Virus record (IMG/VR): IMGVR_UViG_2909303794_000011
Coordinates: 1-51,950 of that record
Length of the DNA: 51,950 nucleotides
DNA from: a virus
Lineage: Duplodnaviria; Heunggongvirae; Uroviricota; Caudoviricetes
Direction: 5' to 3' (one strand)
Position numbers: made by a program. Within the stretch, counting starts at the first letter, position 1, and each line of letters begins with the position of its first letter. Shown here in pieces: positions 36,001 to 39,000 of this stretch.

Positions 36001-39000
36001 CAAATGCCACGGTATCCGCATGCAGCTCGTCGTGATGCTTTCTGCACAAAGGCAACACAAAGAGGTCATGCGCTTTTGTACCCATTCCACCCTGACCGTG
36101 GCCTATCAGGTGGTGGGGATCATCAGCAGGCTTTCCACAACATGCACACGGCTGTGTCTTAACCCAGCGCGTGTACTTTTCGTTAACCCAGCGGCGGCGT
36201 TTTGGGCGTAACATAAAAGACTCCGGCGACTCCGGATCCACTTTCAGCGCCAGCACCTTTTTCGCTTTATCCTGGATGATGCTGGTGGCAGGAACCGAAG
36301 GCACAAGGTCACTTTCCCGGGTGACAGACGGCACAACAGGTTTCGGTAATCTCAGCGCCTTACGGGCTGCGCTTTCAGGTAAGGCATCCGCCAGGTCATT
36401 ACGAATCAGCCACCAGCACAGTTCAGGCATTGTCACGGCATGGTTATCATCAAAACCGAGATCCCGACGGACTACAGACAACACCCAGCGGGCACAGTTA
36501 TCCGTTGCCATTGATTCCAGCCGTTCCGTGAACTGATCGCGCAGCTGGTTATCGCAGTGCCAGCACAGACGGATTGCGCCCGGAGCGTGTCGCATTGTGG
36601 TCATGTTCTCGCTGTGCCAGTCGGAATGAGGCCACTGGCAGCCTTTTTCACGAAGTAACCAGCTTTCAAGACATTCCACGCCACCAGCACGACGGATCAC
36701 TGCCTCATTGCGGAACACGGCCCGAACGGCAGGATCATCCGCCAGCGGTTGTGATGCCACCGGAACGGCACCACTGGCGAAAGATGAATAACGTTCCGGC
36801 TCAGGCTCCAGCAGGACACGCCCCTGCATAAACAGGGGCATCAGCTCTGAACCTGGCCTGAACAATACGATCCCCATACGCGGGGCAATTTCAGGGGTCA
36901 GTAGTGCTCTCACGGCCACCTCAATGAACGGTATCGAGCAGCTTTAATAGCTCAGGGAATCGGGATTCGAAGAAATGCGGCTGCGTCTCGCGCGGATTTG
37001 CAGGACTGGTGATGTTCTTGCCGAACATGCAGCCTTTCGCTGTCAGCGACCAGAATTTTTTGATGTTGTTAATCGCGGTACGGCTGTATCGTTCGCGCTG
37101 CTCGACGATCCCCAGCTTCACCATCTGGTGATATGCCTGATTAGCCGTCAGGCGGATACCATACTGTTTCAGCAGTGCACTCAGTGACAGTGTCGGGCGA
37201 CTTGAGCCATCGTGTGCATCAGCAGGAGCATCAATGGCATAGCGCGGTGCCAGATTCGGTAAGCCAACAGCCTCCTGGAGTTTCTGACAGGCACCAAGCA
37301 CAGATGAGTTAGACAGGTTTAACTCCCGACGCATAAAGTCCAGCAGAATCACACCAGCCTGCATCTTGTCAGCAGCCTGTCCGGATAATTTTTCCGGTGC
37401 GCTGGTTACCATGTCGAAAGTACGGATCACCTTCAGATGGAATGACGGGCTGATCCACATTGCATAGGCATACACCAGTTCCTTGCAGACATAAGTTCCC
37501 CGTTCATTTCCCCCATGAATCACACTCACCGGGTCAACACCCAAATTCTGGGTGTTGGTCAATTCATGAACAAGTTCAATAGTTTGTTGGCTGGAAATAA
37601 ACTTTCCTGGCTCCTTGGTTCTGGCATTTGCACCAGATGCTACTGCTGCGCGATGCAGATCGTTCAGGCTGTAACGCCCATAAGCATCACGACGAACTTC
37701 AATACCATCAATGACCATCAGATTATTCATACTTCGTTTCTCCTCTTGATCAGGCGGCTGCACCCGCCGTTTTCTCGTACTTACTGATAGTGATCTCGAC
37801 CTTCCCTTCCGGGATAACCGGTCCCCACTCCACCAGCATTCTTTTCACCTGACTGTCGTCTTCCCACACACCCGCGTGGGTCAGGGCGTCAAACAGCGCC
37901 TTGTTATAGTTGTCCAGATCGCGGATCCGGTTATCCGGCGGAAACAACACGATCTCCACTGAAGCAGGTGCCGACGTTGGTTTCGGCAAACGACGTAACT
38001 GCTCAACTATTGCTGCGCACGCCGCGCTCTGGAATTTTCACCCCGCCGCGCTTATCAGGCTCTTACCTGCAAACGCCCCTTTGTTGGGATGTCGCCAGTA
38101 CGTGTTCACGCTGGGCGGAAAAGGCAGAATCAGCTTCATACTTTCATGCCCCTCTCATGTAACCAGTGGGCTGCACACAGCCTGGCGTTTTCCTCACCGG
38201 CAAGCAGTGAGCGGATAATCCCGACCGCCTCGCTGTCGTCGTCCTTCACCGCGGTATGAAGCGTTATCCCCCGGGCCACGCCACGCTTTATCGTGATGAC
38301 GCCTTTTTTCTCCAGTGCGCGAAGATGCTCCACCGCTGCATTCACCGAACGGTATCCCAGCATGGTTGCCACCTCCTGATTGGTTGGCGGAAAGCCACGT
38401 TCTTGCTGGTAAGAAATCAGCATATCCAGCACCTGCTGCTGGCATTGAGTTAACGTCGTCATTAAGCCCCCACGTAATTCCCTGACAGATACCATTCATC
38501 ACCAGATACAGCGCGCTTGCTGCTTTTCCGTAAGCACAGCTCACGACGCGCCAGAAAGTTGTTTCGTTCTGGCTGGGAGTGACTTTCACGGAATGCCGCC
38601 ATCCACACCGTTGCAGCACGACGGTATAACCCCCTCGACTCCAGTTCTTCAGCCTGGCGGGTCAGGCATAAAATCACCCGGGGATCGTTAGTGCCGACAT
38701 AGAAATTGCGCACAGGTCTGGTTTCACGAACTGGTTGTGGTTCCGGCTCTTGCGCTCTCTCAGTCAGGCGCGGGAAATGTCTGCGTGTATCTCCTTCACA
38801 ACGGTGAGCCACACGCCCACTCTGACGTAACTTGCTTGCTGACTGCAGTACGCGCTGCCGTGAGTAACCAGCAAAAGCATCCGCAATGTCTCCGGAAGTA
38901 CACCCCGGATGGGCTTCAATGAATTTCTGAACTTCATTCAAAAGACTCATAATCACCCCCTGAATCCTGCCGGGATCTGGCTGTAGTCCACGTTGTCGTA

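Follow-up and report, generated by a model that had tools for sequence, protein, structure and literature searches.

A phage-encoded LexA DNA-binding domain without a peptidase domain: a possible RecA-insensitive LexA surrogate in lambdoid prophages

A LexA-type domain joined to a helical tail

The stretch of DNA analyzed here, called the window throughout, comprises the 51,950 nucleotides (nt) of the IMG/VR virus record IMGVR_UViG_2909303794_000011 (Caudoviricetes) and is a lambdoid prophage in reverse orientation. On its minus strand, at positions 38136-38462, lies an intact open reading frame (ORF) for a protein of 108 residues that carries the DNA-binding domain of LexA and no peptidase domain, and it is this LexA-like gene, and the part that its product might play when the prophage is induced, that we consider here. 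A first-pass annotation of the window had proposed the reading frame, the LexA domain and the missing peptidase domain, and had named a profile search as the check on them, and all of these stand. The Pfam profile LexA_DNA_bind (PF01726) is matched over its full length, residues 1-65 of the protein covering all 65 of its positions (E 2.6e-19) with a score of 69.2 bits, where the cut-off is 23.7, and there is no Pfam match to Peptidase_S24, or to any other domain, anywhere in the 108 residues. The NCBIfam lexA equivalog TIGR00498 is matched only at positions 1-91 of 203, with 70.4 bits and thus below its cut-off of 110.95, and a phmmer search of the PDB aligns residues 2-69 and 2-90 with E. coli LexA at E about 1e-15. 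An AlphaFold (AF2) model of the single chain, built on 24 family members and with a mean predicted local distance difference test score (pLDDT) of 83.8, has three helices and a two-stranded wing in the winged helix-turn-helix (HTH) part (helices at residues 6-22, 28-35, and 40-52, strands at 56-58 and 66-68), and Foldseek superimposes this model on DNA-bound E. coli LexA (3jso) with a root-mean-square deviation of 1.0 Å over 68 residues at 50% identity. The presence of a LexA-like domain at this position is therefore confirmed, far beyond chance. A longer reading of 119 residues from the ATG at 38495 was rejected, as in phage mEp460, which has a different upstream gene, conservation begins only at the start of the 108-residue frame; PADLOC gave only a marginal and meaningless match for the protein.

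LexA contacts DNA through Ser39, Asn41, Ala42, Glu44, and Glu45 (PMC3091678). Four of these five residues (S39, N41, A42, and E45) are kept in the window protein and in most of its close family, with valine in place of E44, and the same four are mostly retained in relatives of 40-50% identity as well. When aligned, the recognition helices read SPNAAEEH in E. coli LexA, SVNAAVEH in the window protein, and SHKTAHRY in gp6 of GIL01, a tectivirus of Bacillus thuringiensis; gp6, a shortened homologue of LexA, is an activator of the late promoter P3 (PMC6182141). Because the four contact residues are retained, a specificity of the SOS-box type is plausible for the window protein.

The claim of the first-pass annotation that the protein resembles nothing but the LexA N-terminal winged helix is correct for residues 1-65 or 1-68 and overlooks what follows them, a conserved C-terminal helical hairpin. 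In the model the hairpin is formed by two helices (residues 75-87 and 93-103; pLDDT 88-89), preceded by a linker of lower score (residues 69-74; pLDDT 61). The tail, of about 35-38 residues, is conserved, and its hydrophobic pattern, EAVxIIRxLL ... ARxxAxxWL, is kept in relatives of 105-112 residues that are only 40-50% identical; between the window and a Citrobacter copy the proportions of nonsynonymous and synonymous differences (pN and pS) in the tail are 0.26 and 0.94. HMMER places the LLAGE of the first tail helix on the VAAGE of the hinge and cleavage region of LexA, and this suggests that the gene arose through truncation of a lexA gene just beyond the cleavage site. A88-G89 of the phage protein thereby aligns with the Ala84-Gly85 cleavage site of LexA. 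The pair is not conserved, however, as it is replaced both in close relatives (LLANEE or LLVGEE) and in distant ones (ER, RK, or DD), and it falls in the predicted turn between the two tail helices, for which reasons we do not regard LLAGEE as a cleavage site. The idea of a retained site, which would make the protein a substrate or a mimic of one, was thus largely rejected, the segment also being predicted to be helical. Because the domain with the catalytic Ser/Lys pair is absent, the protein is predicted to be insensitive to RecA-stimulated self-cleavage, in agreement with the earlier description of it as non-cleavable and independent of RecA.

The tail probably stands in for the dimerization function of the absent LexA C-terminal domain, and we treat it as a candidate dimerization element. 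A different use would be in protein contacts, in which the tail docks on peptidase domains of the LexA family or hinders the RecA-stimulated cleavage of LexA, UmuD, or cI. The descent of the first tail helix from the hinge and cleavage region (EAVGIIRSLLAGE in the phage protein versus EGLPLVGRVAAGE in LexA), the HMMER alignment with LexA that runs as far as residue 90, and the conservation of the tail under purifying selection would all fit such contacts, but the lack of conservation of the Ala-Gly pair and the high confidence with which the segment is modelled as helical, and not as an extended cleavage loop, make them very improbable in our estimation.

With E. coli LexA the phage protein shares the winged HTH fold, the full LexA_DNA_bind match, and S39, N41, A42, and E45. 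It differs from LexA in lacking the S24 peptidase and dimerization domain, the catalytic Ser119 and Lys156 and the conserved Ala-Gly site, in having a helical tail of 38 residues that LexA does not possess, in the changes of E44 to V and R28 to N, and in being encoded in a phage early operon, whereas lexA is an autoregulated host gene. The LexA 1-84 cleavage fragment is similar to it in being a LexA DNA-binding domain without the C-terminal domain. That fragment is rapidly removed in the host by ClpXP, and its new C-terminus, ...VAA, reportedly acts as the degron, a result attributed to Neher et al. in 2003, whereas the phage protein, whose structured tail terminates in ...GMKV, would not expose such a signal. 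The free LexA N-terminal fragment retains some binding to and repression at SOS boxes, and cells must remove it by ClpXP (PMC10584840).

GIL01 gp6 is, like the window protein, a LexA_DNA_bind domain of a temperate phage that has no peptidase domain and is expressed from an early operon. Host and virus type are different, however, the recognition helix of gp6 has diverged, and its sequence of 66 residues consists of LexA_DNA_bind only and ends right after the wing, with no tail. It binds a palindrome of its own, GaCACAnnTGTGaC, that overlaps the -35 element of P3, and for this K38 in its recognition helix is essential (PMC6182141); the corresponding residue of the window protein is N41, as in LexA. 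BLASTP finds no alignment between the two proteins at E <= 100, and because of this lack of similarity we read them as independent truncations with a convergent architecture, which makes the enterobacterial protein an independently derived case of a phage-encoded truncated LexA homologue. It looks as if the enterobacterial protein has kept LexA specificity and gp6 has not, although the former is not uniform within the family. Four database proteins of about 160-220 residues (P0127, P0154, P0157, and P0161) have two tandem LexA_DNA_bind domains, again without a peptidase domain, and would put the same idea into practice as a “single-chain dimer”; their existence suggests that LexA domains lacking the peptidase were taken up on several occasions, with dimerization solved in different ways.

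Genomic setting, distribution and selection

The positions of the gene, its parts and its neighbors are collected in Table 1. The LexA-like gene lies between the O-like replication gene and Q, in agreement with the nin-region placement of the first-pass annotation. The stop codon of the upstream PerC-like gene, TAA, shares one base with its ATG (TAATG), and its own stop codon overlaps the ATG of rusA (ATGA). Because of these overlaps we consider it, from the arrangement of the reading frames, a translationally coupled member of the early right (pR) operon in a nin-equivalent position. The order of genes (replication/PerC, LexA-like, RusA, KilA-N in some, DUF968, Q) is kept in a Citrobacter prophage with a homologue of 63% identity and in mEp390 at 47% identity, and mEp460, SfV, and Ayreon also share the position beside rusA and upstream of DUF968 and Q; a Klebsiella homologue of about 40% identity also directly precedes DUF968 and Q, but RusA is missing there. 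A Dam-type methyltransferase gene of 654 bp lies between the PerC-like and LexA-like genes in mEp460 (L001 3760-4413), SfV, SfII, cdtI, and Stx2 phages, and is cleanly absent at the 38462 junction of the window and in phage Ayreon.

Table 1. Coordinates of the LexA-like gene, its parts, neighboring genes and SOS boxes in the 51,950-nt window
Feature	Position	Strand	Remarks
LexA-like gene	38136-38462	minus	ATG at 38462, 108 codons plus stop; product MTTLTQCQQQVLDML...WLHERGMKV; PHROG 362
Winged HTH, LexA type, residues 1-68	38259-38462	minus	AF2 secondary structure, Foldseek, alignments
Recognition helix, residues 40-52	38307-38345	minus	AF2 secondary structure
Linker 69-74 and helical hairpin, residues 69-108	38139-38258	minus	Predicted by AF2; replaces LexA cleavage-site region and S24 domain
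cI	42036-42728	plus	
cro-like gene	41678-41938	minus	
CII/CP76-like gene	41134-41685	minus	
Rha/Ash region	39989-41137	minus	
O-like replication gene	38953-39771	minus	
PerC/YfdN-like gene	38462-38956	minus	Pfam PerC, E 1.4e-09; phrog_1324
rusA	37750-38139	minus	Pfam RusA
KilA-N gene	36921-37763	minus	
DUF968/HNH gene	35924-36919	minus	
Q	35158-35940	minus	
DNA methyltransferase (N6/N4) gene	33502-34551	minus	Follows Q; lysis and structural genes come next
SOS box TACTGTATGTAAAAACAGTA	42245-42264		Heterology index 3.2 (indicative); inside cI, codons 70-77, linker between HTH and S24 domains
SOS box CACTGTTTATTTTTACAGTA	34524-34543		Heterology index 5.1 (indicative); codons 3-9 of the methyltransferase gene following Q

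The gene is very common and, being already annotated, is no new object. It corresponds to SfV orf42 and mEp460 gp46, bears the RefSeq name “LexA family transcriptional regulator”, and matches phrog_362 over its full length (residues 1-108 on profile positions 1-106 of 106, E 2.5e-58), a family labelled “transcriptional repressor”, which is an annotation transfer. Other database names, “RecA-mediated autopeptidase” and “SOS-response repressor and protease LexA”, have likewise been transferred and, as there is no protease domain, are plainly in error. At the nucleotide level the gene is about 97% identical to mEp460 gp46, SfV orf42, and the genes of SfII, Ayreon, and Stx2a and Stx2c phages, and the SfIV and cdtI proteins are 96-97% identical to that of the window. 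As a group, the PHROG 362 relatives (SfV, mEp460, cdtI, SfII, SfIV, Stx2a/Stx2c) have 94-98% amino-acid identity, equal length and the same neighbors; the window copy differs from them in Q20, C96, A98, and M106, positions that in the majority are K, R, T, and L, and from many of them in having no Dam methyltransferase gene directly upstream. The gene occurs in 2232 of 5426 complete E. coli genomes (41%), in up to four copies, and has homologues in prophages of Citrobacter, Salmonella, Hafnia, and Klebsiella. Full-text searches of the literature gave no experimental study of the enterobacterial family.

The reading frame is uninterrupted in E. coli, Citrobacter, Salmonella, and Hafnia, with a constant length of 106-108 residues, and over the whole gene the comparison with the Citrobacter copy gives a pS of 0.78, near saturation, and a pN of 0.21 (pN/pS about 0.27), values that show purifying selection on the whole protein, tail included. 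These data bear on the possibility that a lexA fragment was once captured and that the gene is what is left of it, in decay or without function. The prophage shows decay elsewhere, in a nonsense codon in rusA and an insertion sequence (IS), and the window copy itself carries R96C at a nearly invariant position of the tail. Against a remnant stand the intact frame of constant length, a pN/pS of this size at saturating synonymous divergence, a gene order that is kept at 47% identity, and the presence of the gene in 41% of complete E. coli genomes and in plaque-forming phages, so that we hold this explanation to be extremely improbable.

The signs of decay, and a few other features of the prophage, can be described briefly. 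The rusA gene, for a Holliday-junction resolvase, has an in-frame TGA at codon 34 (38038-38040, minus strand), where the intact genes of mEp460 and Ayreon have CGC, and because of this stop it reads as a pseudogene in this prophage. An ALIL frameshift pseudoknot (29907-30023, plus strand, 121 bits) marks an IS3-family insertion, with ORFs at about 29700-31100, that is placed between the lysis genes and an esterase-like gene. Together the insertion and the rusA stop codon suggest that the prophage is partly decayed. Beside the integrase gene (50727-51950), an ORF of 1275 residues (46717-50544, minus strand) has an N-terminal SIR2_2 domain and a full-length match to PADLOC Dsr1 (E = 0, 2731 bits) and is, by this match, a prophage-borne DSR1 anti-phage defence gene. 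Two small RNAs are recognized by Rfam within the ORF of 382 residues (Pfam Ash and Rha) that makes up the Rha/Ash region, namely the C4 antisense RNA (40589-40676, minus strand, 68 bits) and the Hfq-binding IsrK (40701-40777, minus strand, 60 bits). By analogy with P1 c4/ant and Gifsy-1 isrK, the front of this ORF probably does not code for protein but serves an antirepressor-type gene as a leader under small-RNA control.

SOS boxes in the prophage

A scan of the prophage for CTGT-N8-ACAG, which the first-pass annotation had put forward, was productive, giving four matches where 0.57 are expected, two of them of high quality (Table 1). Both strong boxes rank as good as genuine operators by a heterology index (HI), whose matrix was made from 25 E. 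coli operators (training scores 2.0-11.5) and whose values are indicative only, and none at HI 6 or below arose in 30 shuffles of the sequence. When CTGT-Nx-ACAG and ACAG-Nx-CTGT were scanned with x from 0 to 20 in the window, mEp460, SfV, and Ayreon, N8 was the sole enriched spacing, and alternative half-site spacings were discarded. In phage Eeyore, whose cI is 72% identical, the linker has diverged except at the cI box, which stands out as a conserved island; in SfII and Stx2a_1447 the box reads TACTGTATATAAAAACAGTA, and we found no paper that describes an intragenic LexA site in a lambdoid cI. The methyltransferase box is conserved in its CTG-N10-CAG core in mEp460, SfV, Ayreon, Eeyore, Klebsiella Kp4866-6, and Citrobacter phiNP, and roughly 150 nt upstream of it are also highly conserved, a pattern suggesting that LexA either controls the methyltransferase or acts as a roadblock where the late region begins. 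A sigma-70 consensus scan found no promoter adjoining either box.

These two boxes could themselves be the targets of the LexA-like protein, which would then tune the choice between lysis and lysogeny, or late expression, after LexA is lost. Their strength, their standing as conserved islands in diverged homologues, and the fact that every phage record with this cI type (at least 92% nt identity) has the LexA-like gene would all be in keeping with this, but gene and boxes dissociate in both directions. We collected 80 IMG/VR loci with the LexA-like gene and counted the boxes at the 49 that have full flanks: nine have only the cI box, 12 only the methyltransferase box, seven both, and 21 neither. 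No strong SOS box is present in the mEp390 region or in the Citrobacter prophage, and Eeyore has both boxes without the LexA-like gene. Host LexA alone is enough to explain the boxes, and the co-occurrence with the cI type is confounded by a linkage of 4 kb. Co-occurrence as a rule was therefore rejected, the two strong boxes appear not to be partners of the gene, and regulation of the prophage through its own boxes appears improbable. Because the boxes occur independently of the gene, they are best explained as sites for host LexA rather than as dedicated operators. By the same token, given that the phage boxes are dispensable for the gene, if the protein has LexA specificity it must find its conserved targets chiefly in the host chromosome or in other elements. 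The first-pass reading, a non-cleavable binder that could occupy SOS boxes or phage operators, is partly supported and reasonable, with two amendments, namely the conserved tail and the independence of the phage boxes from the gene.

A proposed role during prophage induction

We propose that the protein is a RecA-insensitive LexA surrogate that binds SOS-type operators in lytic growth, a reading to which we give a probability of roughly 40%. Host LexA is cleaved after SOS induction, with a drop of about tenfold in its concentration (PMC3159453). In the proposed mechanism the LexA-like protein would be made as a delayed-early product of the rightward operon, so that, with the prophage induced and host LexA lost to cleavage and degradation, it would occupy CTGT-type operators, mainly SOS boxes of the host chromosome and, in addition, LexA sites on co-resident elements. 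Repression would thereby be re-imposed in a form that the SOS signal (RecA*) could not lift. The helical hairpin would provide self-association, and the protein as a whole would amount to a stabilized LexA N-terminal domain with neither a cleavage site nor an exposed degron. The benefit to the phage may be that error-prone polymerases and other SOS functions are curbed while it replicates and that, in polylysogens, rivals under LexA control are silenced. In favor of this reading are the complete LexA_DNA_bind match with no S24 domain, the close superposition on DNA-bound LexA, the retention of contact residues that gp6 has changed, the activity reported for the free LexA N-terminal domain, the translational coupling within the pR operon, the kept gene order, the purifying selection, the enrichment of N8 spacing only, and the dispensability of the phage boxes. 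Domain content, fold, contact residues, operon position, selection and prevalence are established by the analysis, and from them we infer the binding to SOS boxes, the dimerization through the tail, the time of expression and the effect on the cell.

Several observations weigh against this proposal. Contact or nearby residues differ from those of LexA (E44V and R28N, together with R7C in the window copy), and N41 or E45 is changed in the homologues of Citrobacter P0089 (NTIAGH) and of Klebsiella (SKAVLLH), so that LexA-type specificity is not universal in the family. The tail, to which dimerization is assigned, has no Pfam match and no structural homologue in the PDB by Foldseek, and a dimer of different geometry could have an altered half-site spacing. 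About a third of the carriers have an SOS box at the first gene after Q, the methyltransferase, and there a LexA mimic would sit on the phage's own late transcription unit. Finally, gp6, the only phage protein of the LexA N-terminal domain type that has been characterized, is an activator with its own operator (PMC6182141).

The last of these points leads to the main rival explanation, that the protein is a phage-specific transcription factor which, by analogy with gp6, activates or represses a phage promoter through a private operator. Apart from the gp6 precedent itself, with binding and activation at P3, this rival draws on the constant location of the gene shortly upstream of Q, on the altered recognition-helix residues of some family members, and on the possibility that the new dimerization element imposes a new half-site spacing. 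The E. coli family, however, keeps four of the five LexA contact residues where gp6 has diverged, and the window protein has no BLASTP similarity to gp6; Q already provides late-gene control in these phages; and the constant region around the gene has no conserved alternative palindrome, nor is any other CTGT/ACAG spacing enriched. A palindrome search over 34500-42100 gave no convincing private operator, one of its hits (I12) being the cI/Cro operator, and no candidate gp6-type site was found near pR'/Q. We therefore regard a private operator as unlikely, though as a serious competitor. If it exists, the enterobacterial protein would be a second independent case, after GIL01 gp6, of phages reusing the LexA DNA-binding domain as a private regulator.

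If instead the LexA surrogate that we propose does recognize SOS boxes, this very common prophage gene would give an induced phage the means to overrule the DNA-damage response of its host from within. With the inducing signal still present, RecA levels, error-prone polymerases, cell-division arrest and competitors under LexA control would all be damped. The broadest form of the proposal is that about four in ten E. coli genomes, including those with Stx2a and Stx2c phages, harbor an uncleavable LexA surrogate whose “SOS shut-off” re-silences the host SOS regulon after induction of a prophage; this we put forward tentatively and think rather doubtful. If it is true, LexA-controlled rivals, such as SOS genes of other prophages, colicins, and SOS toxins, would also be silenced despite persistent activation of RecA, and mutagenesis and the dynamics of Shiga-toxin phages in polylysogens would be affected. 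The LexA-like gene may thus be relevant to SOS-driven mutagenesis, to the antibiotic-triggered induction of Stx phages, and to the competition among lambdoid prophages of pathogenic E. coli.

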